64,000 nt of DNA, taken from positions 6,476-70,475 of the forward strand of contig DATLXN010000006.1 in the NCBI GenBank assembly GCA_035575715.1, read 5' to 3'. Within the stretch, counting starts at the first letter, position 1. Each line of letters starts with the position of its first letter. The stretch is from Vicinamibacterales bacterium. GTDB taxonomy: Bacteria; Acidobacteriota; Vicinamibacteria; Vicinamibacterales; UBA2999. Made by a program: the position numbers and the translations under genes. The notes under the pieces were generated by a model. The model did no database searches. It was not told the origin of the DNA and saw nothing but the letters and a program-made list of their open reading frames with translations. Positions 1,072 through 58,620 of the stretch are shown here, piece by piece.

Positions 1072-2580
1072 TCACTTGATCAGCGCCGTGTCGGGAAACT
1101 GCGCGTACCAGCCGAACCAGAAGGCGCGGTGAGCTGGCACGCGCGGCAGGCGTGCGGTCTCATCGTTCGCACGCGTCAATGCCTGTTCACTCCATCGCCA
1201 CTGCTCACCCTCCGCATCCAGCACCAGGTGCTCGCCGAGCAGCCGCACGAACCGCACATTTGACGAGCCGGCGTCGAAGACGCGATTAGCGCCCTGGGCT
1301 GTCGTCAGAGCGACGAATCGGCGACCGCCAATCTCGAAGTGGTAGACCTGATTCTTCTTGAGCAGCGCCGCGGCAATCGCAACGGCGGCTGGCTCGCCGC
1401 CGCCGGCTGGAGCGACTTGCAACGCCAGAACCTCGTCCTTCTTCTTCAGCCGGGTGTCGGTGTTCGAGACGCGAAAGTACAGGTCGTCGGTCGAAAAATA
1501 TTCGCGGTAGGCCGCGCCTTCGCCGTAATCCCTCTTGTGGCCGGTGTCGAGTGACAGGACGGTTGTCGTCGGATGCTCGGCGCGCCATTCGCCCCACGTC
1601 GTCGTGACGACGCCGTGCATCGTCAGCTGAAGATCGCTACCGGCCAGCGGGCCGACCACCGGCCGGCCCTCCAGCGTCGACCACAGGCTCAGCGTCTCTT
1701 CGTCGAACATCAGCTTGTTCGATCGGTAAAGCAAGCCGCTGGTCCCGAAGCGTCGCACCTGGCCGCCGGCGCGGCTCTCGTACGGAATGACGGTGCCGCA
1801 CAGCGTGCAGTAGACGATCGTCATCTCGACGCCGCCGATGCGATCGATCGCCATCTCGTGCCACGCGAGGATACGTTTGGGATAGGCGCGTGCCTCGCCA
1901 TTGATCACGACCCCAAACACAATGTGACTGTCGCGCAGGTATGGTGCGTCCGTGGCCGATAGCTGCTTCGGATAATAGAGCGGCGGGATGCCATTGACCT
2001 GCACGCCACCCCAGTCGATCTCGTCGAGGCGAATGAGCGAGGTTGCGTCTGGTCGAAAGAACCCCGCCATCCGTGGATCGATCTGCGCGTAGACCGCGCC
2101 CTTGAAGCGCATGTAATCGGGATGCGGCGCCGCGGGCAAGGTCCACATCCACTCGCGCCAGGCGTTGAGGTTGTCACCGAAGCGCTGCTTGGTCTGGCGC
2201 TCCAGAAAACTGATCAGCCGTCGGCGTGCGATCGACTCGCGACGAATCGGCGCGGCGGCGCGATCGAGTGTGTCGCCGCCACGCGAACCGGCGAAGTCGG
2301 TCGCATCGTCGGCGGCCAAACCGGGGGTCTGATCGCTGCCGGCGTCACGGGGTGCGGCCCGCATCAAACGCGCGAGGTCGATGATCATCGCGGCATAGCT
2401 GTCGCGCCAGCCGCGGGCGATCTCATCGAGCGCCGGTCGCGCTTTCCGTTCGTCGCTCCCGGCGGCCGCGAAGAACAGGTCGATGGGTGGTGCGGGTGCC
2501 CCCGCGGCAGGCTGACCGCCCGGCCCCGCCGCCGTCGCGAGCGCGGCAGCCAACATCAACGCTGCGAATCGCATTGTCAC
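1072..2580 (-). CDS. DUF3179 domain-containing exported protein
   Basis: 502-aa ORF with a signal-like N-terminus (MTMRFAALMLAAALATAAG) and DUF3179-type motifs (IVYCTLCGT, RFGTSGLLYRSNKLMFDEET). Confidence 0.75.
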   Translation of the reverse strand: MTMRFAALMLAAALATAAGPGGQPAAGAPAPPIDLFFAAAGSDERKARPALDEIARGWRDSYAAMIIDLARLMRAAPRDAGSDQTPGLAADDATDFAGSRGGDTLDRAAAPIRRESIARRRLISFLERQTKQRFGDNLNAWREWMWTLPAAPHPDYMRFKGAVYAQIDPRMAGFFRPDATSLIRLDEIDWGGVQVNGIPPLYYPKQLSATDAPYLRDSHIVFGVVINGEARAYPKRILAWHEMAIDRIGGVEMTIVYCTLCGTVIPYESRAGGQVRRFGTSGLLYRSNKLMFDEETLSLWSTLEGRPVVGPLAGSDLQLTMHGVVTTTWGEWRAEHPTTTVLSLDTGHKRDYGEGAAYREYFSTDDLYFRVSNTDTRLKKKDEVLALQVAPAGGGEPAAVAIAAALLKKNQVYHFEIGGRRFVALTTAQGANRVFDAGSSNVRFVRLLGEHLVLDAEGEQWRWSEQALTRANDETARLPRVPAHRAFWFGWYAQFPDTALIK

Positions 2581-2670
2581 AGTCTACCGCGCGACACACG
2601 GCGGGCTGTTTGGTATAAACGTCGCTATGGTGACCCCAGCAGGAGTCACGGCATACTGGACGGAGCACTG

Positions 2671-3207
2671 ATGGCCTTCATTCGATATCTGGACGAGACC
2701 GAGCTGCCGGTGGCGGACCGCGTGCCGGATTCCGACAACATTTTGCGGATTCACAGCGTGCACCCGGCGGTTATGCGCCAGCACTATGAGCTGTACCTCG
2801 AAGTAATGCATCGGCCCGGGCCGCTCACGCGCCGGCAGCGGGAAGTTATCGCGGTGCGGATCTCAGCGTTGAACCGGTGCCACTATTGACTGCATCACCA
2901 CGGAGCGGGACTCCGTCGCATTCTGAGCGCCGAGGGCATGGCCGCTGACGCACAGACCGCATTGATCGATGGGTTGACTGCCGAGGCGCTGGACGACGAG
3001 GCAGACCTGACGCCAGCCGATCGCGTCCTTCTCGAGTATGCGGAGGCGCTGACGCTGACGCCGTCTGCCATCACCGGCTCGCACATCGAGCGGCTGCGAT
3101 CCGCCGGCTTCGACGATCGCGCGATCCACGACGCGTGTGCGATCGTGGCTTACTTCGCCTTTGTCAACCGGATCGCCGATGGCCTGGGCGTTGAGCTCGA
3201 AGAGTAA
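2671..3207 (+). CDS. AhpD/carboxymuconolactone-decarboxylase family peroxidase-related protein with in-frame TGA (2887-2889); candidate selenoprotein
   Basis: ATG at 2671 preceded by GGAG. ORFs 2122..2889 and 2938..3207 share one frame and are separated only by the TGA. Read-through gives 178 aa with the family motif N-R-C-H-Y-[TGA]-L-H-H-H and a conserved C-terminal half (ADRVLLEYAEALT, DRAIHDACAIVAYFAFVNRIADGLG). Confidence 0.75.
2900..2916 (+). promoter_or_regulatory. Candidate bacterial SECIS hairpin
   Basis: ACGGAG (2900-2905) pairs with CTCCGT (2911-2916). The apical loop is CGGGA. The stem begins 10 nt after the TGA, and TGC 2891-2893 could pair with GCA 2918-2920 as a lower stem. Confidence 0.45.
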
Positions 3208-3330: not shown

Positions 3331-3855
3331 CTACCTCCTCAGGACGGGCAAATACGCCTGCCATGCCCCGACCGCTTCCGTGTACTGCTTCGCCATCACT
3401 CTGACGATCTGCCCGATATGGCCGAGGTCATGCACTACCCATGTCGAAAGCAACTGACTGAGCGTCACCACCCCAAGTTCAGGATGCGTGCCACGCTTTC
3501 CGAACATCGCTGGCGTTAAGTTCATCCCCTCCAACTCCCGCAGACTCTCTCCTCGGAGCCACTCGAACCTGTCCAGCAGCTCGCCCAAACTCTTACCTCT
3601 TGATTTCTCGAACATGGCGAAGCGGTCGAATGGTTCGAAGGTGCCTCTCTCGCCACACTCCAAAATGATCTTGGCACGCGGAATCCAATCGGTCTCCTCC
3701 CCGTGGATCAGATGGCCCACCACATCGAAGGGGCTCCAGCCCCCAACGCCTTCGTTTGAAAGGACCCACTCTTCAGGGAGGTGACGCAGCAGCGCATTCA
3801 GCGTAGCAGGAGTACGCCTGAGAATTTCTTTAGCATGATCAAGTTGGAATTCCAT
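3331..3855 (-). CDS. DinB-family (YfiT-like) metal-dependent protein
   Basis: ORF 3331..3918 trimmed to the ATG at 3855 (MEFQLDHAKEILRRTPATLNALL). DinB-type His pattern (VGHLIHGEETDW, VVHDLGHIGQI). Visibly lower GC than the flanks. Confidence 0.7.
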   Translation of the reverse strand: MEFQLDHAKEILRRTPATLNALLRHLPEEWVLSNEGVGGWSPFDVVGHLIHGEETDWIPRAKIILECGERGTFEPFDRFAMFEKSRGKSLGELLDRFEWLRGESLRELEGMNLTPAMFGKRGTHPELGVVTLSQLLSTWVVHDLGHIGQIVRVMAKQYTEAVGAWQAYLPVLRR

Positions 3856-4036
3856 AGACGGCCGACCTCGCAAACGTCGTCTTTCATAAAGATCGTCCCG
3901 ATCGAGCACCGGCTTCAATCGACGATCGGCGTACCGTCGAGAGCTTCCTAGTCGCGGACTCGAATTTTGAGGCTCTCAATCGCGAGAATCAGCACCCGGT
4001 GGCCCATTGCCACTCACATGTGCACGACGAGTCCGG

Positions 4037-16889: not shown

Positions 16890-17771
16890 CTGGACGTCTA
16901 TCTCATCGACGGAACCTACGAGCTCTTCCGGCACTATTTCGCCCTGCCGTCGGCCCGCGACCAGGCCGGCGTCGAGGTTGCCGCGGTGCGCGGCGTGGTC
17001 ACGTCCCTCCTCAATATGATCGGCAGCGGCAACACGTTTATCGGTGTCGCCACCGATCACGTCATCGAGTCCTTTCGCAATCGGATGTGGCGTGGTTATA
17101 AAACCAGCGCCGGCATCGACCCGCCACTGCTGGCGCAGTTCCCGATTCTCGAAGACGCGCTGATCGCCGCCGGGATCACGGTCTGGCCGATGATCGAATA
17201 CGAAGCCGATGACGCACTGGCCGCCGCGGCCGCCAAGGCCGCTGACGATCCACGGGTCGAACGTGTCGTGATCTGCACGCCGGACAAAGACCTCAGTCAA
17301 TGTGTGCGCGGCACCCGCGTCGTGCAGATGGATCGCCGCAAGCGCAGCATCCGCGACGAGGCCGGCGTGATCGCCAAGTTCGGGGTCCCGCCCGTCTCGA
17401 TTCCCGATTACCTGGCGTTGGTCGGCGATTCCGCTGATGGCTACCCCGGATTACCCGGCTGGGGCGCCAAATCCGCGGCAGCCGTGCTGGCGCGGTTTGG
17501 GCACCTCGAAGCCATCCCCAGTGACTCCCGCGAGTGGGGCGTCAATGCCGCAAGCCCTGCGAAGTTGGCCGCCACCCTCGTGCGCGACCGCGACCACGCG
17601 TTGCTGTTTCGCGATCTGGCGACCCTGCGGACCGACATGCCGTTGTTCGATTCGGTCGATGCGTTGCAATGGACCGGACCGACGCCGGGTTTTAAAGCAT
17701 TTTCGGCGCGCCTCACCGGAGCAACCGCTGGCGAGCCTGATGCGCGGCCGCGCCGCGCGGCAGATTACTGA
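16890..17771 (+). CDS. 5'-3' exonuclease / flap endonuclease (PIN + H3TH)
   Basis: The family similarity starts at [19 protein letters not shown], upstream of the listed ORF 16986..17771. Only CTG (16890) is available as an in-frame start after the TAG at 16875. An H3TH region is present ([25 protein letters not shown]). Confidence 0.75.
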
Positions 17772-18979
17772 CCGAAGCGCGGATTGACGATGCTCGCGAA
17801 ACGCGATCCGAATTGGTATCGGAAGCCGAATTCGACGCGCGTCTCGAAGCCGCTACTCAACTGACGCAACCGCAGCAGTACTTCTTCGGCGGTCGCGTCG
17901 CGTCGCGGCAGCGACAGGCGATCGCGAATGCGTGAGGCTGACGCTTCGAGCGACAGCGACAGGCCGCGCGCGACACGGATGTCCACCTCGGTATCGACGC
18001 TGACGCGATGGTTCGTGAATCCTGGAAAATAGTTGGACAGTTCGACGCGGCCTTCGACCGTGCCCCACGGCTCACGCTGTTCGTAGGTGCCGGACAGTTC
18101 CTGGCGGGCGCGGGTTTCCCTCAATTTCTCGAACAGCGTCTCTTCGAAGTAGCGCGTCTTCGATCCACCGAGGGAATACAGCACTCGCAGCTGGCGGCGG
18201 GTGTAAACCGAATAGGGGAAAAAGTTCCATTCCACCGCAGGCGCGACACGGATGTCGAGTTGGATATTGTCAAACGTCGATGACCGGACTCCGCCCCTCA
18301 GTCCTGCCGACCAGTGCTCGCCGAGCGCGCGCACACCAAGCCAGTTGACGCTGCGGTTGTTCCGCTCGACGGCCAATGGCTGGTCTTCGTCGAGATCGAA
18401 TTCCTGCCGCGATTGAAAGACGTTGGCACCGACCGTCAATTTCCACTCGGGGGTAATGCGGTCGGCACCGACAGAAACCCGCCAATGGCGATCGCGCTGC
18501 GACTCTTCCGCTCGCAACTGCGCGTTGCCGTTCAGGCTGAAAATCCACCGCTTCCACGGATCATGGTCGCCACTGACCGGCGCCGATGTGCTGCCGGACA
18601 GCTGTGCACTGACTTCGAGGTCGGCCGGCACTGATGTCGGCGCGACGTAGGCGAGTAAGCCGACCGTGAGCGCGCTCGCCAATGAGCGCCGAACCCGATC
18701 TTCAGAATCGGTGGACTCGGCCGTCACGGTCAGGGTGCGCGTCGTTGCGGTGAACGCGCCGAGGCCGATGAAGGAGAGCGTGTATTCCTGGCCGCGTGAA
18801 CCAGTTTGCGCGCGCGTGACCAGGACGTGGACGTCCGCATCCGCGCGGTCGCGCACGTATTCCACCAGTTCGACTCGATCGCGCAAATAATCGTCGAAGC
18901 AGTGGGTGCCACTGCAATCGAGGAAAACCTTGAGCAACGCCGCGTTGTTGCCGCCACAAGCATCTGATGATCTTTGCAC
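17765..18979 (-). CDS. Hypothetical protein with beta-barrel-like C-terminal region
   Basis: 404-aa ORF with alternating-polarity strands, ending ...[23 protein letters not shown]. No signal peptide fits before an upstream in-frame stop. Confidence 0.5.
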   Translation of the reverse strand: MQRSSDACGGNNAALLKVFLDCSGTHCFDDYLRDRVELVEYVRDRADADVHVLVTRAQTGSRGQEYTLSFIGLGAFTATTRTLTVTAESTDSEDRVRRSLASALTVGLLAYVAPTSVPADLEVSAQLSGSTSAPVSGDHDPWKRWIFSLNGNAQLRAEESQRDRHWRVSVGADRITPEWKLTVGANVFQSRQEFDLDEDQPLAVERNNRSVNWLGVRALGEHWSAGLRGGVRSSTFDNIQLDIRVAPAVEWNFFPYSVYTRRQLRVLYSLGGSKTRYFEETLFEKLRETRARQELSGTYEQREPWGTVEGRVELSNYFPGFTNHRVSVDTEVDIRVARGLSLSLEASASRIRDRLSLPRRDATAEEVLLRLRQLSSGFETRVEFGFRYQFGSRFASIVNPRFGQ

Positions 18980-19636: not shown

Positions 19637-19793
19637 AACAACCTCCATGTGCGCTTGTACGATGACGCAGCATCAGAGTTGCGCCTGGCACGGCCCCGGA
19701 GGGAGTGACACGGGGTGATGTAACGGTGACAACCACCGATTTTCAAGGGAAAACTTGCCTTTCTTTCTGTGTAATCTATGTAATCTGTGGTTC

Positions 19794-20667
19794 GTGGTTG
19801 AAGAAGAGCGCGTGCGAGCGCAGCTGGAACGAATCCTGGTCAGTCCCGGTTGGGCCAACGGTGGTCGCCTCAGCCGGCTGCTGAAGTACGTCGTCGATCG
19901 GACACTGGCCGGGGAGGGCGGACAGCTCAAGGAATACACGCTTGGCGTAGAGGTCTTCGACCGCGCGTCGGAGTACGACCCGCGCATCGACTCGATCGTC
20001 CGCGTCGAAGCGAGACGACTGCGCGCCAAGCTGGAGGACTACTACACCGGACCAGGGGCTTCCGATCCGGTGCTGATCACCATCCCACGTGGCGGATATG
20101 TAGCGGTGTTCGCGCTGTCGCAGCCGCCGGCTCAAGCCGTCGTGAGCGCCGTGGTCGCGCCGACGCGACGGCGCAACGTCATCGCCGTGGCCGTACTCAC
20201 GGTTGTCGCGGTGGGCGCTGTCAGTCTGACCAGCGGGCGATGGCTGCCCGGTCAGACCACACCGGAAGCATCGTCGACGCTGCGCATTGCCGTGTTGCCA
20301 TTCGCGCACTTCTCTGTGTCGCCAGAGCACAATCTGTTGGCGGCGCGCATTACCGACGGCGTCACCAGTGAACTGGCCAAAATCTCGGCGCTCTCGGTCG
20401 TATCACGCACCAGCGCGGCGCAGTTTGTGAGCGAACAAGCGGCCGGTACGCGAGGTCGCGCAACGGCTCGATGCAGCGTTGGTGATGGAAGGGAGCCTGG
20501 TGGTCGAGAGCGGCGTGGTGAAGGTGGTGGCGCGGATCGTCGACCCCATCCGGGACCGCAAGATTTGGGTCGGCGAATATCAGAGCGCGCCCGATGCCAT
20601 CACCACGCTGCAGCGGCGCATTGCGTCTGAGGCGGGCGCGGCGATGCTCAAGCGCGCCCCCCAGTAG
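19794..20667 (+). pseudogene. Winged-helix (CadC/OmpR-like) + TM + TolB-like/FlgO-like regulator, interrupted by a +1 frameshift near 20445
   Basis: The frame of ORF 19755..20630 carries RLSRLLKYVVDRTLAGEGGQLKEYTLGVEVFDR...RVEARRLRAKLEDYY, one TM helix and RIAVLPF...SRTSAAQF. The family continuation VREVAQRLDAALVMEGSLVVESG...KIWVGEY is in the frame of ORF 20479..20667. An extra G in GG 20445-20446 explains the shift. Confidence 0.65.
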
Positions 20668-20695: not shown

Positions 20696-21817
20696 TTAGT
20701 TGCAGCGTGCCTGCGCGATTTCGGCGCGCTTGCGTTTGAACACGCGAACCCATTCATCAACCGTGTCGCCGCGTCGCGCCACCTGCGCCACGGTAAACAG
20801 GTCCCGCAACTGAGCATCGCTTAGCATCGCCAGACGATCGGACAGAAATTTCCGGCCTGCTTCACTGATGCGAGGGTTCTCCAGACTGCCGGTGAACGAT
20901 CGCGGTAAGTCGCCGATGCACCGGTCCGCGTCTTTCCACACCTTCGAGCCGTCCCAGTCGCTGAGATCCATCTTGCTGTTATTCAGCGCGGTTGCTTTCC
21001 CGAACGTGGTCCCGAGATCCTTGACGACCAACAGCGGATTACCACAGCTCTCGGTGCCTCGAGCGTCCTTCTTGGTTGAACCGGGAGGGCACACAATTTC
21101 TTGTTGCTCCGGCTTGCTATCGGAATGCTGGATGAACACGGCAAGGAGCTTGAGGGCGTCGACCTGTGCGCGTGTCGCACCAGCGCCGCGGGTGTCGATC
21201 TTGTCGAGTTCGGGCCAGGCCCAGCCCTCGAAGTCCTTTACTTCGATCGCGGTACCGGGCAGGTCGCGTTCTATGGCCGCTGGGTCGAAGACGTGCGTGC
21301 CAAGGTTGTCCGGCTTGCCACGTTTCCAATCGGTCTTGCTGGCGGCAAACGGATCGGCCGGGCAATCGCGACAGGTGACCTTTGCGGGATACATCCGATC
21401 GGCGCGGAACCCTAACGCCCAGAACAGCCGACTCGCGGCCACTTCAGCAAAGACTTCCCCGTTCTTCGGCCCGTACTTCACCTTGACCACATCGTCGGGC
21501 CGCACCTCGCAGTTGAATTTTGGGGTGTTGCCGGTCAGCGCTTTCTTCGGAAAGACGAACTCGCAACTGACGTCGTCGCCGATGCGCATGTTGGCGGGCA
21601 GCGGCGGGCCGGCTTTGAGATCAAGGGAGGCGGTGTCGACCGCTTGCCAGACGCTGGCGCGGCTGAGCAAGGCTGCACGTTCGCGCACGCTCAACTCCTT
21701 GAGGGTGCGCGGACCGTCAGGCACCTTATTGCTGTCCTTGGGGCCAAATCGGCCGCTGGCGCACGCGCCCAAAAGCAACGCAAAGACAATCACCGCCGCG
21801 AATTTCTGAGTCCTCAC
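20696..21817 (-). CDS. Cys-rich lipoprotein with protein-kinase-like motifs (hypothetical)
   Basis: GTG at 21817 gives VRTQKFAAVIVFALLLGAC (lipobox LGAC). Internal motifs are VKVKYG...EVFAEVAASRL, FIQHSDSKPEQQ and VVKDLGTTFG. Confidence 0.6.
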   Translation of the reverse strand: MRTQKFAAVIVFALLLGACASGRFGPKDSNKVPDGPRTLKELSVRERAALLSRASVWQAVDTASLDLKAGPPLPANMRIGDDVSCEFVFPKKALTGNTPKFNCEVRPDDVVKVKYGPKNGEVFAEVAASRLFWALGFRADRMYPAKVTCRDCPADPFAASKTDWKRGKPDNLGTHVFDPAAIERDLPGTAIEVKDFEGWAWPELDKIDTRGAGATRAQVDALKLLAVFIQHSDSKPEQQEIVCPPGSTKKDARGTESCGNPLLVVKDLGTTFGKATALNNSKMDLSDWDGSKVWKDADRCIGDLPRSFTGSLENPRISEAGRKFLSDRLAMLSDAQLRDLFTVAQVARRGDTVDEWVRVFKRKRAEIAQARCN

Positions 21818-21960
21818 CTGCCCACCTCGTCCAAAGCGCGGCCGTCGCTGCCCATGCGTGGCCCGTAGGTGGCCCAACACTGCAATCCCCGATCCCATTG
21901 GTGACGGCGACTGAAACGACGAGCTGGCCCAATGCGCGAGCGCCGGTGTCTAAAGCCGGC

Positions 21961-22724
21961 ATGCTTGAAGGCTCGACGCGTCCAAGAGTTACCACGGCGT
22001 CCCGGCGGTTAAGTCGGTCAGCATCAAGGCCCTTCCCGGCGAAGTGATCGGCCTGCTTGGTCCGAACGGCTCGGGCAAGAGCACGACAGTCAAGATGATT
22101 GTCGGCCTGCTCACCCCGACGCACGGCCACGTCCACTGGCAGGGGCGCGACATCCACGACCAGTTACTCGGCTATCAGTCGATCGTCGGCTACGTGCCGG
22201 AGGAACCGAAGCTCTACACCTACCTGACGGCGGTCGAGTACCTCGAATTGGTCGGCGGCCTGCGCGACATCCACGCGGGCATTCTCAAGCGGCGCATCGG
22301 CCGCTATCTCGAGTTGTTCGGGCTCTCGAGCGACATCTACACGCCGCTCGGGTCGTTTTCGAAAGGGATGCGGCAGAAGGTGCTGATTGCGGCGGCGCTC
22401 ATCCACGATCCGGCGGTCGTCGTCCTCGACGAACCGAACTCGGGACTCGACGTGGCCTCGACGTTGATCATGCGCACGCTCGTGCGCAGCCTTGCCGAGC
22501 GCGGAAAAATCATTATCTACAGTTCGCACGTGCTCGATATCGTCGAGAAGGTCTGTGAGCGCGTGCTGATCCTGCATAAGAGTAAAGTCGTCGCCGATGA
22601 CTCGGTTTCGCGGCTGCGCGAACTGGCCAGCGCCGCTTCACTCGAACAGGTGTTTTCTTCGCTGGCGGTCGATCAGAACGTCGAACAGATTGGCCGCGAA
22701 CTAGCGGACGTGGCGACGGCGTGA
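21961..22724 (+). CDS. ABC transporter ATP-binding protein (N-terminus disrupted by a frame change)
   Basis: Walker A GPNGSGKST, signature FSKGMRQKV, Walker B VVVLDEP. The conserved N-terminal strand LDASKSYHGVPAVKSVS (from 21972) has no in-frame canonical start. The ATG at 21961 is one frame off. Confidence 0.75.
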
Positions 22725-24421
22725 ACAGACGAGACTGGCGGCAGTTCCGGCTGTTGTCGCGCGACGCGGTGCGTCAGTTGATCGATGCGGCGTTGTATTC
22801 ACGCGAATCCGATCCGATGGAATTCGCGGTGTGGATGCTCGCATTGATCGCGACGCCGCCCGCGTTTTTCGCGGCGCAGCAAATCTTCACCTACATCGCG
22901 CTGGTGAAAGCACCAGCCGACGTCGTGCAGCAGGTGGCCACGAGCCATCGACTGTTCTTCGTCGTCTACGGCATGCTCGCCGCAGCGCTGCTCGCGGCGC
23001 TGACCTGGGAGGCTGTTTTTCCTGACGGCCGTGACCAGGAGGTGATCGGCGTGCTTCCAGTGCGGCCGCACACGTTTGCCGCCGCCCGGTTGGGTGCCGC
23101 GGCCATTGTCGGCGTCGCGTTCACCGCTGCGATCAATGTGCCGGCGGCATTTGTCTACACGCTGATGGCAGCAGGGCACCCGTCACTGCGTGACCCGAAG
23201 CTGCTCGTCGGCCATCTCATCGCCACGATGATGGCGTCACTGACCGTGTTCTTTGCGCTGATCAGCCTGCGTGGCATCGTTGCCGTCATCCTCGGTCCGC
23301 GCGCCGGGGTATGGCTGGGTGCAGCCCTGCAAATCGTCGCGATCATTCTGCTCGTCGACGTGTTCTTTTTCCTGCCTGGCGTGCTCGGCGCAATGGCTGG
23401 CTACGTGTTACGCGGCGAGCCGTCCACTCTGGTGTATCCACCGGTGTGGTTTGGCGCGCTGCATTTATGGATTGCCGGCGTCGGCGGTCCGCTGATCGGC
23501 GATGGTGCCGGCCTCGGTGCGTTGGCGTTTGTCGGCACGGCCCTGTTGACCATTCCGATCTATTTGCTGCCGGCAAAGTATTTGGGACGCCGTGCCCTGG
23601 AACGGCGCTCCCGACAGCACGCCACGGGCCTGGCGCTGACTCTGCGCATCATCTCAGTCATCACGCGCGCAACCCCTTCGGTTCGAGCGGTGTTTGCGTT
23701 CATCGTGGCCAGCCTGATTCGCAGCCGGCGTCACCTGTCGATCGTCGCTACCTACTTCGGCCTCGCGATCGCCGTGTGCGTCGTCAGTTTTTTCGTCCTG
23801 GACGGTCGCGGCACCGTCGTTCTCGCGTATCCCACGGCGTGGCTGCTGGCGCTGCCGTTGGTCTTCATCTACTTCCTGGTGCTCGGGTTACGCGCAGCGT
23901 TTCGTATTCCGACGGAGATCGAAGCCAACTGGCCATTCCGCGTGACGCCCCCGTCGCTCGCCACCTGCGTCAACGCGACGGCACTGGCGATGTTCACGCT
24001 CGCCGTGTTGCCAGTCGGCGCGGCGACGTTCTTCGGTAGTGTCTTCATGTGGCCGATCGGCCAAGCGCTCGGTGCCACTGCTTTGCAGATGCTCGCGGGA
24101 TTGATGTTGATCGAGTGCGTACTTGCAGCGTGGACCAAGGTGCCGTTCGCATGCGGCCACCTCCCATCGCCCGATGTGTTCAAGGCGCTATGGCCGATCT
24201 ACGGCATCGCACTGCTGATCTTCGCGTTCCTGCTGTCGGACTGGCAGGTAGCCGCGCTGACGTCGGTGACGGCGCTTGGCAGTTATCTCGCCTTCTGCCT
24301 TACCGTGATTCTCACCGTGCGCACCTGGCGCTGGCGCACGCGCAAGAACCAGTCGATCCCGTTCGACGTTGTCGCCGGCCATGCCGTCGAACAATTGAAG
24401 CTGTCAGGCGCGCTGAACTAG
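22721..24421 (+). CDS. Multi-pass membrane protein, presumed partner of the upstream ABC ATPase
   Basis: 566 aa with more than 10 hydrophobic helices. The GTG start overlaps the ATPase stop (GTGA). No family recognised. Confidence 0.55.
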   Translation: MNRRDWRQFRLLSRDAVRQLIDAALYSRESDPMEFAVWMLALIATPPAFFAAQQIFTYIALVKAPADVVQQVATSHRLFFVVYGMLAAALLAALTWEAVFPDGRDQEVIGVLPVRPHTFAAARLGAAAIVGVAFTAAINVPAAFVYTLMAAGHPSLRDPKLLVGHLIATMMASLTVFFALISLRGIVAVILGPRAGVWLGAALQIVAIILLVDVFFFLPGVLGAMAGYVLRGEPSTLVYPPVWFGALHLWIAGVGGPLIGDGAGLGALAFVGTALLTIPIYLLPAKYLGRRALERRSRQHATGLALTLRIISVITRATPSVRAVFAFIVASLIRSRRHLSIVATYFGLAIAVCVVSFFVLDGRGTVVLAYPTAWLLALPLVFIYFLVLGLRAAFRIPTEIEANWPFRVTPPSLATCVNATALAMFTLAVLPVGAATFFGSVFMWPIGQALGATALQMLAGLMLIECVLAAWTKVPFACGHLPSPDVFKALWPIYGIALLIFAFLLSDWQVAALTSVTALGSYLAFCLTVILTVRTWRWRTRKNQSIPFDVVAGHAVEQLKLSGALN

Positions 24422-25528: not shown

Positions 25529-26146
25529 GTGATCCGCCGCTTCCTTTACCTTGTCTTCGTCGTCTCGGTCGTGACGCTGGTCTGGACCTTCGTTCAGCTC
25601 GGCCACATCCTGCATCACGAAGACCCACTCGAAAAGGCTGATGCGATCTTCGTCCTCGGCGGCGGCCGCCTCGATCGTGTCGCGGAAGCTGGTGAGCTGG
25701 TGCTCGAGCAGTGGGCGCCACGGATTGTGCTGTCGCGGCAAGAGTCGGACGGCGCCGAAATCGCGTTCCGGCAGCGAGGTTTCACGTTCCCCTCACCCGA
25801 AGACATCTCGCGCGACATCCTGATTCAACTGGGCGTGCCGGCCGGCGCCGTCACGATCATCGATGGCGAGCAGACGACGACGGCAACCGAAAGCGATTAC
25901 CTACTGGCCGTCGCCGGTCGCGAGCGCTGGCGCCGCGTCATCGTGGTGACCGACAAAATGCACACGGCGCGCGCGGGGTTGGCTTTCAAGCGGCGATTTG
26001 AAGGAACCGGTGTCGCGATCATCATGCGGGCGACGCGCTACGACGATGCCAATCTCGACCAGTGGTGGCGGTCACGTTCGGACGTGCGTTTTGCGTTGTG
26101 GGAAGCGCAAAAGTTCGTGGCTTACTGGATCGGGATCGCGGACTGA
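25529..26146 (+). CDS. YdcF/DUF218 family protein (ElyC/SanA-like)
   Basis: N-terminal TM helix, then DAIFVLGGGRLDR...VVTDKMHTARA, typical of DUF218. Confidence 0.7.
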   Translation: MIRRFLYLVFVVSVVTLVWTFVQLGHILHHEDPLEKADAIFVLGGGRLDRVAEAGELVLEQWAPRIVLSRQESDGAEIAFRQRGFTFPSPEDISRDILIQLGVPAGAVTIIDGEQTTTATESDYLLAVAGRERWRRVIVVTDKMHTARAGLAFKRRFEGTGVAIIMRATRYDDANLDQWWRSRSDVRFALWEAQKFVAYWIGIAD

Positions 26147-26171
26147 CCGGGAACCGGCACACGTCTTTTCG

Positions 26172-26214
26172 CCACCGGCTGGCCACCGGCTACCGACCAC
26201 CGACCACCGACTGA
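26172..26214. repeat. Degenerate short tandem repeats (CCACCGGCT / CCGACCA units) just upstream of selC
   Basis: The run is CCACCGGCTGG CCACCGGCTA CCGACCA CCGACCA CCGACTG, followed by TATCAT (26215-26220) 7 nt before the tRNA 5' end. Confidence 0.6.
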
Positions 26215-26227
26215 TATCATCGCGAGT

Positions 26228-26322
26228 GGAAGCGAACGGGGCCCGGTGGCTCTCCCGGTCTTCAAAATCGGTCGCTGCCTCTTCGGGGGCAGGCTGGGTT
26301 CGACTCCCAGGCGCTTCCGCCA
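26228..26322 (+). tRNA. selC: tRNA-Sec (selenocysteine tRNA), anticodon UCA
   Basis: 95 nt. Acceptor arm GGAAGCG(A) with (G)CGCUUCC, discriminator G and encoded CCA. A 6-bp D stem (GGGGCC/GGCUCU, with G:U pairs) and 4-nt D loop CGGU. Anticodon arm CCGGU-CUUCAAA-AUCGG. Long variable arm CUGCCUC-UUCG-GGGGCAG. T arm CUGGG-UUCGACU-CCCAG. Confidence 0.9.
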
Positions 26323-26323
26323 A

Positions 26324-27004
26324 TCACCGCAGCAACGCCACCACCGCTTTCGTGTCCTGCAGATCAGCAACGACCATGTCTGCGCCAGCCGCCCGCAGCA
26401 CCTCGACCGAATGGGATCCGGTCGCGACCGCTAACGACCGCGCTCCCGCAGCATGCGCACAGGCGATGTCATGAGGCGTATCGCCGACGATGATCGTGCG
26501 TTCGCGCGTGGGAGCGGGGATGCCGCGTTCTTGCGCGCGCACCATGGCGGCGCGGCCTAAGTCGTTGCGGTCAGCCGATTCTTCACCGAAGATGCCCCAC
26601 TCGAAGTGGGCATCGATCTCGAATTGCGCCAGCTTGATCCGCGCTGCGGCCTCGTAGTTACCGGTCAGCAGCGCCAGATGGAACGGCGGCTGCTGTAACG
26701 CCGCCAGCAGCGCCTCGACTCCTGGCATCACGCCGCGCCGGCCAATACCCGGCTTGGCGATCTCCTGTTGCAGCACCGGCAGATAGGCGTCGCGAAAGCG
26801 CGCGTGCACCTCCGGGGTATTCGGGAGGTGCGCGCGGCTGAGCGCATGCGAGATCAGAAACGTGTCGGTGTGTCCCGCCACGGGTATCCCGGCGAAGGCA
26901 TCCGGCACGCCGAACAGCGCGTCGAACGCGATCGTCATCGCCCGCACGCCGGCACCACCGCTGAGCAGCAACGTGCCGTCGATGTCGAACAGAACGAGAC
27001 TCAC
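26324..27004 (-). CDS. HAD-family hydrolase (phosphoglycolate phosphatase-like)
   Basis: VLFDIDGTLL motif I and GDTPHDI motif. The GTG at 27004 overlaps the upstream stop (GTGA). The stop lies 1 nt from the selC 3' end (convergent). Confidence 0.8.
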   Translation of the reverse strand: MSLVLFDIDGTLLLSGGAGVRAMTIAFDALFGVPDAFAGIPVAGHTDTFLISHALSRAHLPNTPEVHARFRDAYLPVLQQEIAKPGIGRRGVMPGVEALLAALQQPPFHLALLTGNYEAAARIKLAQFEIDAHFEWGIFGEESADRNDLGRAAMVRAQERGIPAPTRERTIIVGDTPHDIACAHAAGARSLAVATGSHSVEVLRAAGADMVVADLQDTKAVVALLR

Positions 27005-27207
27005 TCGCTGGGGTCGTAATGAATATCGACCGCGCGTGGACCTTTCGGCGTCCACTCCTGCGCGAATCCGACGCGCTCTTTCACCTGCAACTGGTCAAAT
27101 CCGTCGCGCGCGCCGTCGCGCACGAAAAACCATTCCAGCCCGGCATCGTCGAGCAGAAATCCAAAGCCGTGTTCGGGGACGAGGCGCGTGATGTGACCGT
27201 GCAGCAT
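27001..27207 (-). CDS. Divergent cold-shock-domain-like small protein
   Basis: MLHGHITRLVPEHGFGFLLDDAGLEWFFVRDG..., 68 aa, with a GFGF core. The start overlaps the upstream stop (TAATG). Confidence 0.65.
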   Translation of the reverse strand: MLHGHITRLVPEHGFGFLLDDAGLEWFFVRDGARDGFDQLQVKERVGFAQEWTPKGPRAVDIHYDPSE

Positions 27208-27923: not shown

Positions 27924-28738
27924 GCGCGCGCGGCGACGAGACGCTGATACTCGCCCTCGGGGAGCGTCGACCGACCGAGATGACGGTCGCGGTCATCGTC
28001 GCCGTGATAATCGGAGCCCCCGGTGATCAGCAGGGCGTGTTGGCTCGCAAATGCCAGCAACTCGCGCTGCAATTCGGCATTGTGATCGGAGTGATACACC
28101 TCGATCGCATCGAGACCGGCGTCAACCAACCGCGCCATCACCGCCGGCTGTCGGGTCACGCCCGGATGCGCCATCGACGCCAGGCCGCGCGCCTGGTGAA
28201 TCACGTCGACGACCTCGCCAGGGGTCGGGCCCTGGCGCGGTACGAACGCCGGTTGGCCGGCTGCCAGATACCGATCGAACGCTTCCTGCATCGACCCGAC
28301 ATGGCCGCTGTCGATCAACGCGCGCGCAATCACGGGACGGCCGACCGACGCGCCGGGTCGCCGGCCCGCGCCGGCCAGTAGTGCGGGGATGTCGATCGCG
28401 ATACCCAGCGACGCCAGCCGCGCGCCGATGTCGTGCACGCGTGCGATCCGTCGCGATCGTTGTGTCTGGAGAAATGTGCCCAGCGCAGCGTCGGCCGTAT
28501 CGATGAAGTAGCCGAGCATGTGCACATCGCGCCCCTCGTGGACCGCTGTGATCTCGATGCCATCAATGAGCTCGACGCCGGCCGCAGTGGCCGCGGCACG
28601 CACGTCCGTCAACCCGGCCACCGTGTCGTGGTCGGTGACACTCATCACCGTGATCCCCGCTGCTGCGACGCGTCGGACCAGCTCGGCCGGCGCGAGGCGC
28701 CCGTCCGAGGCGGTGGTGTGGAGGTGGAGGTCGATCAC
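27920..28738 (-). CDS. PHP-domain metal-dependent phosphoesterase (TrpH/YciV-like)
   Basis: MIDLHLHTTASDGRLAPAELV...SVTDHDTVAG...GGSDYHG. The GTG start overlaps the upstream stop. Confidence 0.85.
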   Translation of the reverse strand: MIDLHLHTTASDGRLAPAELVRRVAAAGITVMSVTDHDTVAGLTDVRAAATAAGVELIDGIEITAVHEGRDVHMLGYFIDTADAALGTFLQTQRSRRIARVHDIGARLASLGIAIDIPALLAGAGRRPGASVGRPVIARALIDSGHVGSMQEAFDRYLAAGQPAFVPRQGPTPGEVVDVIHQARGLASMAHPGVTRQPAVMARLVDAGLDAIEVYHSDHNAELQRELLAFASQHALLITGGSDYHGDDDRDRHLGRSTLPEGEYQRLVAARA

Positions 28739-29721
28739 CGCGACGCGGCGTGGCGCGGCGTCGAGGCGCGCGATGCCTTGGTCTTGCGCTTGCCCTGACG
28801 ACGGAGGAGGGCGCGATATTCGCGGATCAGCATCTCGAGGTGATCGCGTTCTTCGTCAGCAAACTCGAGGAAGATTTGTTTGCCTTCTGAATCTTCAAAC
28901 CGCTCGCCGTACTTCTTGAAGAAGCGATGTGAACCGCGCTCGCAGCGGATGCCGATCTTGTAGGCTTCGCGGTCGTTGATGCCCTCTTCGAGCAGTTCGT
29001 CAGCGCCGCGTGCGAACAGGCCGTTGGCCGCGCCTTTGAAAAACAGGAAGGTGGGATGCGATTCGAGCTGCGGATCCTGTTCGAGAAGCTTCTGGTAGCG
29101 CTTCTCGAGCGTGCTCATGTGCTCTTTCTCTTCTTCGGCCAACCGCTGGAACACACTCCGGCCGCGCGGGTCTTTGGTCACGCGCGCGGCGCGGGTGTAG
29201 AACTCCAACCCGCTGCGTTCGGTGGCAATGGCCATCCGTAACGCATCGCGGGCAAACAGCAATTCGCTGGTCGCGCCTTCTTCGACCGGCGGGCGGCCGG
29301 TGCGGCAGGAGTCGCACGTGCCGTAAATCTGCACCACACTCTGGCGCGCCGTAAAGCCGCGTGCCGCCGCGACTTCTTCAACCAGCGCCTCGATGTCCGA
29401 GCTGAGAAATTCGTACGAGCGATTGCAGCTCTTACAAATCAGGTGGAAATGACGGGGATGACGATACGAATGTTCGAAGCGGAAGCGGCCTTCGCCGAAG
29501 TCGACCTTGCGGGCGATCCCGGCTTCGACCATCCATTGCAGCGTCCGATAGACGGTCGCGCGGCTCGTGCCGTGGTCTTCACGTTTGATCAGATCGACCA
29601 GATCGTCCGCGCTCAAGTGTCCCTCCTGACGGAGGAACACCTTGACGATAAGGTCGCGCTTGCTCGACCGCTTGGTGCCAGCCGGCCGCAGACGCTCGAG
29701 ATCCGGGAGGGCTGTTGCCAT
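28735..29721 (-). CDS. Fur-family transcriptional regulator fused to a rubrerythrin/ferritin-like di-iron domain
   Basis: The N-terminal half is Fur-like (ATVYRTLQWMVEAGIARKV, HFHLICKSC...CDSC). The C-terminal half has four-helix-bundle ligand motifs (ERSGLEFY, EEEKEH, ERGSHRFF, EERDH). Confidence 0.8.
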   Translation of the reverse strand: MATALPDLERLRPAGTKRSSKRDLIVKVFLRQEGHLSADDLVDLIKREDHGTSRATVYRTLQWMVEAGIARKVDFGEGRFRFEHSYRHPRHFHLICKSCNRSYEFLSSDIEALVEEVAAARGFTARQSVVQIYGTCDSCRTGRPPVEEGATSELLFARDALRMAIATERSGLEFYTRAARVTKDPRGRSVFQRLAEEEKEHMSTLEKRYQKLLEQDPQLESHPTFLFFKGAANGLFARGADELLEEGINDREAYKIGIRCERGSHRFFKKYGERFEDSEGKQIFLEFADEERDHLEMLIREYRALLRRQGKRKTKASRASTPRHAASR

Positions 29722-43856: not shown

Positions 43857-43958
43857 GCGGGTGGGCGGGTGGGCGGGTGGGCGGGTAAGGCTAATAGCAG
43901 ATAGGGCGCTTTGACCGTGTTGCTTACCTGCCTACCTGCCTACCTGCCCACCTGCCTT
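43853..43958 (+). repeat. Long inverted repeat whose arms are tandem 8-mers (GTGGGCGG array vs TGCCTACC array)
   Basis: The left arm is 43853-43890 and the right arm 43923-43958, with a 32-nt loop. About 34 pairs form on the plus-strand RNA, including periodic G:U. The right arm overlaps the last codons of the convergent GNAT gene. Confidence 0.8.
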
Positions 43959-44780
43959 AGCTAGCAGATAACGACCGCGGTTGGACTCGCGGGTGAGTTC
44001 GAAATCGACGGCTCGATAGCCGCGTCCGAAGTAGCTCTCAAAAATCTCCCGCGTGGTCATGCGCCACTCCAGCGCCAGGTCCGGCTCTTCTTTCTGCATC
44101 TCGGTGAAGCCGGCCGGCACCTCGACCCACACCCGTCGCACGTCGAGCGACAGATCGCCCCGCTCGGTGGCGCGCCACCGACCCACCGTGGTGGTCGCGT
44201 TCACCGTCGGCGCACCGCTGACCTCGTCACTCCGCACCGAGAATGTGTCGCGCTGTGCGATGCGGCGCTCGACATGCGGCTCGCCCAGCATCCACTCGAC
44301 GACCAAGCGATCGGTCGGCGTGCCGCGATGCAGCGCGCTGGTTGATTCGCCATAAAAATTGCGGGCGTACTCGCTGCACACGACGCCGAGCCTGGCGAAA
44401 TTGAGATGGGCATTGAGCGCCTGGAGCGGATCGAATGTCCACTCCATCAAGTCGAAGTTCGCCGCGAGCGCGCGCTCGCGTTGTGCCAACTTCAGCGCGC
44501 GGCCCAGCCCCGACCGTCGGTGGCCGGGCAGGACGCCCATCATGTGTGACCACTGCGTCGGCCGGCCGTTCTTGACGCCGACGATTGAAAAAGCAAAGCC
44601 GACCATCCGCTGCTCGGTGTCAAACGCCCCGATCAGAATGCCGCCGCGTTTGACGGTAATGATGAACACCGGGACCGTGATCAAGTCACCGGTATCGGTA
44701 TAGCCCCAAATCGCGCGCTCCAGATCGACGACGCCCTGGAAATCGGCGATGCCCCGCAGGTCACGAATCTCAAACGTCAT
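43932..44780 (-). CDS. GNAT-family acetyltransferase-like protein
   Basis: 282 aa. GNAT core GVLPGHRRSGLGRALKLAQRERA. The C-terminal ...AKAGGQVGR is encoded by the repeat array. Confidence 0.65.
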   Translation of the reverse strand: MTFEIRDLRGIADFQGVVDLERAIWGYTDTGDLITVPVFIITVKRGGILIGAFDTEQRMVGFAFSIVGVKNGRPTQWSHMMGVLPGHRRSGLGRALKLAQRERALAANFDLMEWTFDPLQALNAHLNFARLGVVCSEYARNFYGESTSALHRGTPTDRLVVEWMLGEPHVERRIAQRDTFSVRSDEVSGAPTVNATTTVGRWRATERGDLSLDVRRVWVEVPAGFTEMQKEEPDLALEWRMTTREIFESYFGRGYRAVDFELTRESNRGRYLLAKAGGQVGR

Positions 44781-57137: not shown

Positions 57138-57599
57138 TTATCCCTGCAGGTCGTAAAAGAGGCTGGACGAACCACGGCGCTGCGAGAGCGAGCGCTCACG
57201 CTGGGCCGCAATTTCGCGGGCTTCTTCGCAGTCCTTGCAGCGCACAGCGAAGGGCAACGCGCGCAGACGCGCTTCCGCGATGTCCTCGCCGCATTCAAAG
57301 CACAGCCCGTAGCGTCCGTCTTCGAGGCGGGCCAGCGCTTCGTTAATCTTGTTGAGCGTTTCCGCCTTCATCTGAATGAGGGCCAGTTCGATATCTTCCT
57401 GGATGTCGACTTCGGAAGCTTCGCCTTGATCCATCACCTCGTGAGGCTTCTCCGCGCCGTCAGCTCGGACGCCGCGAATCTTGCCCTGCACTTCGGTGAC
57501 GAGTTCCGCCTGACGCTCCTGAAGCATCTGCTTGAGTTCGTCATACCGGGTACCATCGGGTGCCGCGACTACTGTGGTGCGCTTTGATGCCTTCGCCAT
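57138..57599 (-). CDS. dksA: DksA/TraR-family C4 zinc-finger protein
   Basis: ATG at 57599 after AAGGAG. CFECGEDIAEARLRALPFAVRCKDC. Confidence 0.85.
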   Translation of the reverse strand: MAKASKRTTVVAAPDGTRYDELKQMLQERQAELVTEVQGKIRGVRADGAEKPHEVMDQGEASEVDIQEDIELALIQMKAETLNKINEALARLEDGRYGLCFECGEDIAEARLRALPFAVRCKDCEEAREIAAQRERSLSQRRGSSSLFYDLQG

Positions 57600-58042
57600 G
57601 ATTCCAACCGCTCCTTCCCATGCCTCCGACCGTTCTGTCGAAGACCGCATGATTGCACTCCCTTACTGCAAGGACAGTGCCTAAAAATGACCGGCGCCGA
57701 CATGGCCACCGGGAACTCCTACCGACCCAACACCGCCTCACCAGGGACTGTATAAGAGAGGCTTTGCGTCCAAACCGGTCGCAAAATTGCACCAGCGGAT
57801 GCCCCTGGTTGATCGGGTAACTACTGAAAGGTCAATCACTTACACGAACGACATGAACCCACGTGAGCCACGTCGAACACCGTTCACTGCATTAGACGCC
57901 GCACGGACAAATTGGGTTCGCCGAAGCCACACTGTCGCCTCTTGGGGACAGCGGCAAACGAGGGAAGGTATCACAAAACCAGGCCGTGTGGTAGGATCGG
58001 GGTTTCCTTTTTGAACCAGAAAGCGCTCAGGACGTTCAAGTT

Positions 58043-58234
58043 ATGGCGAATCGCTGCGATATTTGTGACAAAGGACCAGTTGTCGGCCGGCGCGTCTCAC
58101 ACGCGCACAACGTCAGGCCTCGCCGGTTCGAACCAAACCTTCAGACTGTCCGGGCGGTCGTCAACGGCGGCATCAAGCGCCTCAAGGTCTGCACTCGCTG
58201 CATCCGTTCCTCCAAGGTCGTCAAGGCCGCGTAG
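58043..58234 (+). CDS. rpmB: 50S ribosomal protein L28
   Basis: MANRCDICDKGPVVGRRVSHAHNVRPRRFEPNLQ... Confidence 0.92.
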   Translation: MANRCDICDKGPVVGRRVSHAHNVRPRRFEPNLQTVRAVVNGGIKRLKVCTRCIRSSKVVKAA

Positions 58235-58620
58235 TGTCGGACCGTCAGGCGGTTGTGTCACCCACGGCGGCCGCCGCCATCGGTCCCTATTCCCCCGCGA
58301 TCCGCGTCGGCAATCTGCTGTTCCTGTCGGGCCAGATCCCGCTTGACCCGGCCACTGGCCAGGTCGTCAACGGCGACATTCGCGTCCAGACGACACGGGT
58401 GCTCGACTCGATGGGGGAATTACTGCGGGCCGGCGGCGCCGAGTTCCGCCATGTCGCCCGCACCACGATTTTCCTCGCCGACCTCGCCGACTTCGCAGTG
58501 GTCAACGAAATTTACGCCACGTATTTCTCGCAACCGTATCCGGCGCGAGCGACGGTGCAGGTGGCGCGCCTGCCGCGCGACGTGCGGGTCGAAATCGACG
58601 CCATCGCGGTTATCGCGTAG
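58234..58620 (+). CDS. ridA: RidA/YjgF-family reactive intermediate deaminase
   Basis: AIGPYSPAIRVGNLLFLSGQIPLDP...ARATVQVARLPRDVRVEIDAIA. Confidence 0.88.
   Translation: MSDRQAVVSPTAAAAIGPYSPAIRVGNLLFLSGQIPLDPATGQVVNGDIRVQTTRVLDSMGELLRAGGAEFRHVARTTIFLADLADFAVVNEIYATYFSQPYPARATVQVARLPRDVRVEIDAIAVIA

Follow-up and report, generated by a model that had tools for sequence, protein, structure and literature searches.

A split AhpD-like gene of a Vicinamibacterales bacterium very probably encodes a selenoprotein of the CxxU type, with a minimal SECIS-like hairpin after its UGA codon

The stretch of Vicinamibacterales bacterium DNA analysed here (64,000 nucleotides; GenBank assembly GCA_035575715.1, contig DATLXN010000006.1, positions 6,476 to 70,475 of the forward strand), referred to below as the window and numbered from its first letter, carries at 2671-3207 a gene interrupted by an in-frame TGA. 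Judging from its sequence and from that of its relatives, this is in all likelihood a genuine selenoprotein gene, coding for a peroxidase-related AhpD-like protein (TIGR01926) with a CxxU motif in which UGA 2887-2889 is read as selenocysteine (Sec). The gene is not novel: it is an additional, mis-annotated member of a family known since 2005. The reading is carried above all by the conservation of the TGA codon in relatives from many phyla, by the alignment of this codon with a catalytic cysteine in solved homologues, by selection acting on the codons and on a small RNA hairpin downstream of the TGA, and by the presence of a tRNA-Sec gene in the same window.

From ATG 2671 to TAA 3207 on the forward strand, translation gives a single frame with 178 sense positions and an internal stop. 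This stop, TGA 2887-2889, is codon 73 and the sole interruption of the frame; the sequence around it reads N68-R-C70-H-Y72-[TGA]73-L-H-H-H77. The two open reading frames (ORFs) 2122..2889 and 2938..3207 are both in frame with ATG 2671. On re-reading the sequence, we found every position given in the initial annotation for these two pieces, the start codon, the GGAG before it, the TGA, the hairpin and the tRNA-Sec gene to be correct. The elements concerned are as follows.

2671..3207, forward strand: complete coding sequence of the putative AhpD-like (TIGR01926) selenoprotein, 178 residues with one UGA read through, defined by translation and by Pfam, NCBIfam and PDB matches.
2662..2665, forward strand: Shine-Dalgarno-like GGAG, 5 nt before ATG 2671, read from the sequence.
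2842..2844, forward strand: codon for Glu58, the predicted proton-relay glutamate, 12 residues before Cys70, from its invariance and spacing.
2878..2880, forward strand: Cys70 codon TGC, first residue of CxxU and predicted resolving cysteine, aligned with the first Cys of CxxC in the PDB homologues.
2887..2889, forward strand: UGA codon 73, probably read as selenocysteine, second position of CxxU, from the conservation of TGA and the Cys found there in homologues.
2899..2901, forward strand: codon for His77 (Sec+4), the predicted relay histidine, from the spacing shared with AhpD proteins.
2900..2916, forward strand: hairpin resembling a selenocysteine insertion sequence (SECIS), within the codons for H77-G-A-G-L-R82, from its conservation across 81 genes.
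26228..26322, forward strand: tRNA-Sec gene (selC), anticodon UCA, 23 kb away, from ARAGORN and Rfam RF01852.

Around the gene 2671-3207, nothing resembling a promoter or a terminator was detected. The public Logan assembly SRR7741809_5268 (41.6 kb; loci L170 and L171) contains an identical sequence, in which gene calling has divided the gene into ORFs of 72 and 89 amino acids, just as expected from the earlier suggestion that standard gene callers would miss or truncate it. For annotation, this implies that the two ORFs should be merged into one selenoprotein gene, a correction in which the main value of the finding lies.

Relatives of the gene were gathered from two sources. A genome scan limited to one genome per species gave the 80 best relatives, which are 53-76% identical to the window protein over residues 1-178 and together with the window gene make up the 81-gene set; a scan of metagenome contigs, for which an alignment of Cys-form proteins served as query, gave the 80 best loci. 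The Sec-form genes form the 161-gene set. The homologous codon is TGA in 80/80 of the genome relatives and, despite the Cys-form query, in 79/80 of the metagenome loci, and because of this identity of the codon the in-frame TGA is far beyond chance. The genome relatives belong to at least eight phyla, among them Acidobacteriota (including Vicinamibacterales and Thermoanaerobaculia), Gemmatimonadota, Chloroflexota, Planctomycetota, Calditrichota, SAR324, Bacteroidota, Eisenbacteria and others; a delta-1 genome associated with Olavius is also represented (L079, 55% identity, TGA at the homologous codon). Most genes of the 81-gene set (79/81) place the TGA at codon 73 counted from a start residue that is common to the relatives (MAF[IV]...).

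None of these orthologues ends at the TGA: 159/160 relatives have it and continue for about 105 codons, which disposes of one objection foreseen in the initial annotation. Another, that the codons beyond the TGA might show no purifying selection, fares no better. The median identity of the window protein to its relatives is 64% before and 59% after the TGA, and the ratio of non-synonymous to synonymous change (dN/dS) is 0.18 upstream and 0.29 downstream, values that are approximate, dS being saturated (>1). The codons downstream of the TGA are thus under purifying selection. Moreover, Glu(-15), Tyr(-1) and His(+3) recur without exception in 161/161 Sec-form genes. The invariance of Glu58 was not forced by the search pattern; His77 was found in all relatives too, but the pattern demanded it.

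These comparisons bear directly on the possibility that the gene is a pseudogene or an assembly error, that is, a Cys-form gene in which TGC or TGT was turned into TGA by a nonsense change or a miscalled base. Such an event requires a single base change, and a relative with TCA at this codon (L088) indicates that point variants do occur. However, the same codon is TGA in 159/160 independent relatives from many phyla and assemblies, the 105 downstream codons are open and under purifying selection, and the identical sequence recurs in the independent public assembly. The comparative data effectively refute this explanation, and we give it virtually no credence. The variant itself deserves mention: at L088:1501-2037 (protein P0008), TCA (Ser) replaces TGA while the hairpin is fully intact, which points to a sequencing error or else to an inactivation of very recent date. 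Genuine Cys forms are rare (P0005, P0011 and P0012, 51-55% identity, with TGC or TGT); at the DNA level, the comparison with non-Sec forms covers five Cys-form genes and this one Ser variant, and a Cys codon (TGC/TGT) takes the place of UGA in the close forms L081, L084, L085 and L086.

For the assignment of the protein to a family, the read-through product was scored against profiles with Cys written at the stop position. It matched the Pfam CMD domain PF02627 (E 2e-15, 56.8 bits against a cut-off of 23), the AhpD core domain TIGR00778 (ahpD_dom; 44.2 bits against 27.8) and, over residues 23-175 of 178, the NCBIfam family TIGR01926 'peroxidase-related enzyme' (109.1 bits against 81.8). The protein therefore belongs, as had been proposed, to the peroxidase-related branch of the CMD/AhpD family. 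It fell below the cut-offs of TIGR00777, which describes bona fide AhpD of the M. tuberculosis type (26.1 bits against 191.95), of NF041238 AhpD_rel_CFYUT (72.1 against 175) and of the YciW-related NF053654 (32.2 against 310); the latter two are related yet distinct selenoprotein families. The best PDB matches were 2oyo, 6k40 (D. radiodurans DR1765), 3c1l, 2pfx and 2prr, with E values from 1e-15 to 1e-19 over residues 22-173. The entries 2oyo, 6k40 and 3c1l reached E about 1e-19, a closeness that settles the fold, and all five are Cys-containing 'peroxidase-related' AhpD-like proteins. Their NRC-x-Y-C-x-x-S/H-H-G-A-A-L-R aligns with NRCHY[TGA]LHHHGAGLR, so that Cys stands opposite the TGA, and the similarity extends past this codon as far as residue 173. 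The alignment to homologues recommended in the initial annotation is accordingly favourable to it on both points.

The same alignments speak to the view that TGA 2889 is a real stop, giving either two small genes or a functional product of 72 residues, with ORF 2938..3207 being separate or untranslated. This view takes the gene calls at face value, since the caller gave exactly 72 and 89 amino acids, and ATG 2938 does provide the downstream ORF with a start codon. However, the 16 codons from the TGA to ATG 2938 (L-H-H-H-G-A-G-L-R...), including that of His77, encode the most strongly conserved segment of the protein; both the PDB alignments and the AhpD fold cross the junction unbroken; and the relatives have neither a conserved start codon nor a ribosome-binding site after the TGA, their two halves always being in frame. 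Two separate genes or a truncated product are therefore very improbable. Splitting of this kind appears to be widespread in the protein database, which is rich in fragments of about 104 amino acids starting just after the TGA and in others ending in ...NxCHY. The merging of ORFs advocated here for the window gene would apply equally to hundreds of truncated entries of about 104 amino acids.

A selenoprotein requires dedicated decoding machinery, and one component of it is present. ARAGORN found one tRNA in the window, a tRNA-Sec with anticodon TCA at 26228-26322 on the forward strand, and Rfam RF01852 agrees (63.7 bits, with a gathering score of 47; E 1.3e-10), in line with the earlier report of such a gene in this window; the CCA end is encoded. 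The tRNA-Sec gene is flanked by a DUF218 gene and a HAD-hydrolase gene (25529-27055), not by selA or selB. As to the genetic code, TGA is the normal stop of 18/33 Pfam-supported ORFs of the window, which implies that the code is standard and that recoding is local.

This observation also bears on the idea that the UGA is recoded, but not as Sec, owing to genome-wide reassignment of the codon to Trp or Gly (code 4 or 25) or to near-cognate read-through by Trp or Cys. Several database entries (P0001-P0004) do show W at this position. They come from short contigs translated under a code in which TGA means Trp, and the DNA has TGA; this is visible at locus L087:124-663, where the protein entry shows Trp and the DNA gave no translation to the query under table 11. 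Since TGA ends 18/33 supported ORFs, a tRNA-Sec gene is at hand and the homologues have a catalytic Cys at this position, forming a classic Sec/Cys pair, we consider recoding as an amino acid other than Sec highly improbable. The window has further candidates for CxxU or UxxC read-through, regarded here as spurious, which lie in alternative frames or on the opposite strand of Pfam-supported genes; one example, at 58367 on the reverse strand, lies opposite a RidA-like ORF.

The hairpin at 2900-2916 consists of a 6-bp stem, ACGGAG (2900-2905) paired with CTCCGT (2911-2916), and a 5-nt loop, CGGGA (2906-2910). It begins 10 nt past the UGA, leaving 16 nt (2890-2905) between UGA and loop. The bacterial SECIS model with which it was compared allows a loop of 3-9 nt, a stem of 4-16 bp, a G in the first two loop positions, a UGA-loop distance of 16-37 nt and a minimum free energy (MFE) of -7.5 kcal/mol or lower (PMC13188914). 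Loop and stem sizes fall within these limits, and a G occupies loop position 2, followed by another G where the model usually has G or U (PMC13188914). The proposal that a hairpin lies at the position of bacterial SECIS elements is thus borne out by four rules of the model, with a borderline energy. The CGGGN loop register was seen in 65/81 genes of the genome set (in a tally of best hairpins, 53 with CGGGN and 12 with a stem one pair longer and the loop GGG) and in 69/79 metagenome genes.

Whether related genomes keep the hairpin had been put forward as a check, and they do. Across the 81 genes, the six stem pairs are formed in 96% of cells, compared with 30-53% in controls whose 3' partner was displaced by 1-3 columns. 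In five sequences (L049, L054, L055, L073 and L074), the canonical stem is broken and a shifted hairpin takes its place there. Furthermore, the use of synonymous codons, numbered here from the Sec codon, is restricted exactly where pairing demands it:

Gly+5, in the stem: GGA or GGG in 77/77, never GGC or GGT, which make up 60% of the background; synonymous entropy 0.99 bits.
Ala+6, in stem and loop: GCG in 69/70, against a background of 39%; 0.27 bits.
Leu+8, in the stem: CTC in 78/81, against a background of 34%; 0.50 bits.
Arg+9, in the stem: CGT in 72/79, against a background of 8%; 0.80 bits.
Gly+7, with its third base at the end of the loop: all four codons (GGT, GGA, GGG and GGC) in use; 1.85 bits.
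Other conserved four- and sixfold degenerate codons of the same genes, outside the hairpin: 1.5-2.15 bits.

The limitation of Gly+5 to purines matches the pairing prediction because both purines can pair with the opposite U. As the remaining synonymous sites of these genes are saturated, this freeze reflects selection on the RNA and not shared ancestry or constraint on the peptide. The significance of the hairpin lies in its conservation, not in its energy. Folding energy was accordingly set aside as support for it, the region being no more stable than shuffled sequences (z = +1.62). A lower stem taking in the UGA, as in the MFE fold of the window sequence, was also rejected, its pairs being formed in 47.8% of cells, no better than controls.

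A number of observations weigh against the selenoprotein interpretation, or against the hairpin as its SECIS element. A Pfam scan of 43 ORFs of the 64-kb window revealed no selA, selB or selD, and no conserved neighbourhood surrounds the gene in the 81 loci. The distance between UGA and loop, 16 nt, is at the lower limit of the model (it is 16-19 nt in 79/81 genes), and the 17-nt hairpin alone has an energy of -7.3 kcal/mol, short of the threshold of -7.5; over the relatives the median is -6.9, and -7.5 is reached in 33/81. Longer folds at the hairpin region are more stable but not conserved, the MFE fold omits hairpin 2900-2916 unless the sequence is extended, and the 62-nt region folds worse than its shuffles, as the above z value indicates. 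RNAalifold gave no consensus structure for the 81 sequences, and Rfam gave no match to a SECIS family at gathering thresholds, nor at E up to 10 within 2800-3000. Covariation is almost nil (one compensatory change from GC to AU, in L033, and 27 from AU to GU) because the stem sequence is nearly invariant. Three close Cys forms (L084:1501-2040, L085:1302-1841 and L086:1501-2046) keep the ACGGRG/CUCCGU stem with changed loops (CGAAU, CGAAC and GUC, respectively), which means that the hairpin is not strictly Sec-specific. Finally, H-G-A-x-L-R is also a signature at the protein level, kept in the Cys homologues of the PDB.

Several of these points could be taken to suggest that the selenoprotein is real but that hairpin 2900-2916 is a by-product of the H-G-A-G-L-R peptide, the true SECIS element lying further downstream. 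The peptide is kept in Cys homologues, the stem in the three close Cys-form genes, true covariation is minimal and the energy is borderline. However, the synonymous sites are frozen only where they are paired or belong to the CGGG of the loop, the last loop base being free; saturation of dS elsewhere leaves shared ancestry as no explanation; sequences without the canonical stem have acquired a shifted one in that very position; and no other conserved pairing was seen downstream, the lower stem included. A mere by-product of the peptide is consequently unlikely, if somewhat less so than the other alternatives considered above. The stem retained in the close Cys forms may represent a 'fossil' SECIS that has outlasted a recent conversion of Sec to Cys; the more distant Cys forms L081 and L089 are without it.

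If the gene is decoded as a selenoprotein, the established bacterial pathway suggests the following course of events. During translation, the hairpin would act as a bacterial SECIS and, as the ribosome reaches the UGA, would recruit SelB-GTP together with the Sec-tRNA(Sec) encoded by selC at 26228-26322, so that Sec would be inserted at UGA 2887-2889 in place of termination. In the resulting protein, Sec73 would replace the second Cys of the AhpD CxxC motif, and the relay, by homology, would consist of Glu58, Cys70, Tyr72, Sec73 and His77. In M. tuberculosis AhpD (MtAhpD), the second Cys is reportedly the attacking nucleophile, in which case Sec73 would be the nucleophile of the window protein and Cys70 the resolving residue. 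The selenolate of Sec73 may thus attack an oxidised partner, which could be the sulfenate or disulfide of a peroxiredoxin, or a hydroperoxide; Cys70 would then resolve the adduct as a selenenylsulfide, to be re-reduced by a cellular thiol system. A mutant of the homologue DR_1765 is sensitive to H2O2 (PMC8945050), which supports an antioxidant role.

The surroundings of the gene vary among the 81 loci, the largest clusters of neighbours being an ECF-sigma-like protein (12), a redoxin-like protein (10) and DUF3179 (9). In the window, all on the reverse strand, the neighbours are a PIG-L family deacetylase (51-860), a DUF3179 protein (1072-2580) and a DinB_2 protein (3331-3918), and in L170 a GT4 glycosyltransferase (L170:1-372) lies just past the window start. 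The PIG-L/GT4/DUF3179/DinB_2 set is reminiscent of the biosynthesis and use of low-molecular-weight thiols of the bacillithiol or mycothiol type. Further along, an unusual-looking ORF of 328 amino acids (28735-29721, reverse strand) fuses a FUR-family regulator domain (14-133) to a rubrerythrin-like domain (159-215), a combination that may bear on peroxide sensing. Long ORFs (282-566 amino acids) with no Pfam match at E 1e-3 are located at 20696-21898, 17765-18979 and 43932-44780 on the reverse strand and at 22721-24421 and 19755-20630 on the forward strand; given the 63% GC of the sequence, some of these could be spurious or read in an incorrect frame. The segment 57138-58620 has no long ORFs; small genes labelled there by eye from translations only are a DksA-like zinc finger (57138-57650, reverse strand), an L28-like protein (58043-58234, forward strand) and a RidA/YjgF-like protein (58234-58620, forward strand).

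As the family, its motif and the decoding mechanism are already established, the finding opens no new question. It implies that the organism would decode Sec and place selenium in a peroxidase-related redox protein, and it is further evidence that use of this AhpD-like selenoprotein is common in soil bacteria akin to Acidobacteriota and Gemmatimonadota. A broader reading, tentative and in our judgement rather doubtful, is that the Sec form, far from being a rare variant, is the overwhelming norm in this clade of TIGR01926 (159/160 relatives, mostly Acidobacteriota and Gemmatimonadota of soil and sediment), that annotation splits it systematically, and that it carries a minimal, near-invariant SECIS of 17 nt across at least eight phyla, embedded in the codons of the active-site helix. 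The near-invariant pattern would suggest either horizontal spread of a cassette of gene plus SECIS or the conservation, from phylum to phylum, of a motif recognised by SelB. If this reading were true, the soil selenoproteome would be under-counted, and the hairpin would offer a convenient minimal model for the recognition of SECIS elements by SelB outside Proteobacteria and Firmicutes.

The statement in the initial annotation that AhpD-like proteins occur in Sec form agrees with a published CxxU family under TIGR01926 (PMC1088965, PMC2398784, PMC13188914). AhpD-like CxxU selenoproteins were first described in the Sargasso Sea study of 2005, with 27 sequences assigned to COG2128 (PMC1088965), and the Global Ocean Sampling (GOS) analysis of 2008 listed 299 'AhpD-like 1' sequences (PMC2398784). 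They rank with the most abundant bacterial selenoprotein families. Seven AhpD-like selenoprotein genes were reported from Olavius symbionts, the family being present in the delta-1 symbiont (PMC1976440); a review of 2026 lists the 'AhpD-like protein, TIGR01926, CxxU' (PMC13188914), and BSepDB has a page for the AhpD-like family (PMC13326102). The window gene shares with these selenoproteins the hidden Markov model family, a predicted Sec as the second residue of CxxU, a G-loop SECIS-like hairpin right after the UGA and the existence of Cys homologues; it shows each testable defining feature of the family and differs from it in nothing essential. What sets the window copy apart is its origin in a GC-rich (63%) genome, with Vicinamibacterales, other Acidobacteriota and Gemmatimonadota as its closest relatives, soil phyla to which the selenoprotein literature searched pays little attention.

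With the Cys proteins of the PDB, namely 2oyo, 3c1l (Mlr4105), 2pfx, 2prr and 6k40, the window protein has in common the fold family and the motif N-x-C-x-Y-C-x-x-x-H-G-A-x-L-R, whereas these proteins have Cys at the Sec position and are about 30-35% identical to it. The relay residues described for MtAhpD (Glu118, Cys130, His132, Cys133 and His137) and for P. aeruginosa PA0269 (Glu36, Cys48, Tyr50, Cys51 and His55) (PMC3141380) have a spacing identical to that of Glu58, Cys70, Tyr72, Sec73 and His77 in the window protein. M. tuberculosis AhpD thus shares the active-site relay but not orthology, as its TIGR00777 score (26.1 against 191.95) indicates, and the window protein would have Sec in place of the second Cys; no ahpC gene lies beside the window gene within the 64 kb. 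Compared with the bacterial SECIS consensus (bSECISearch; PMC13188914), the window hairpin is at the minimal end, without a conserved lower stem. Bacterial SECIS elements usually vary between genes, whereas hairpins of the window type are almost invariant across phyla.

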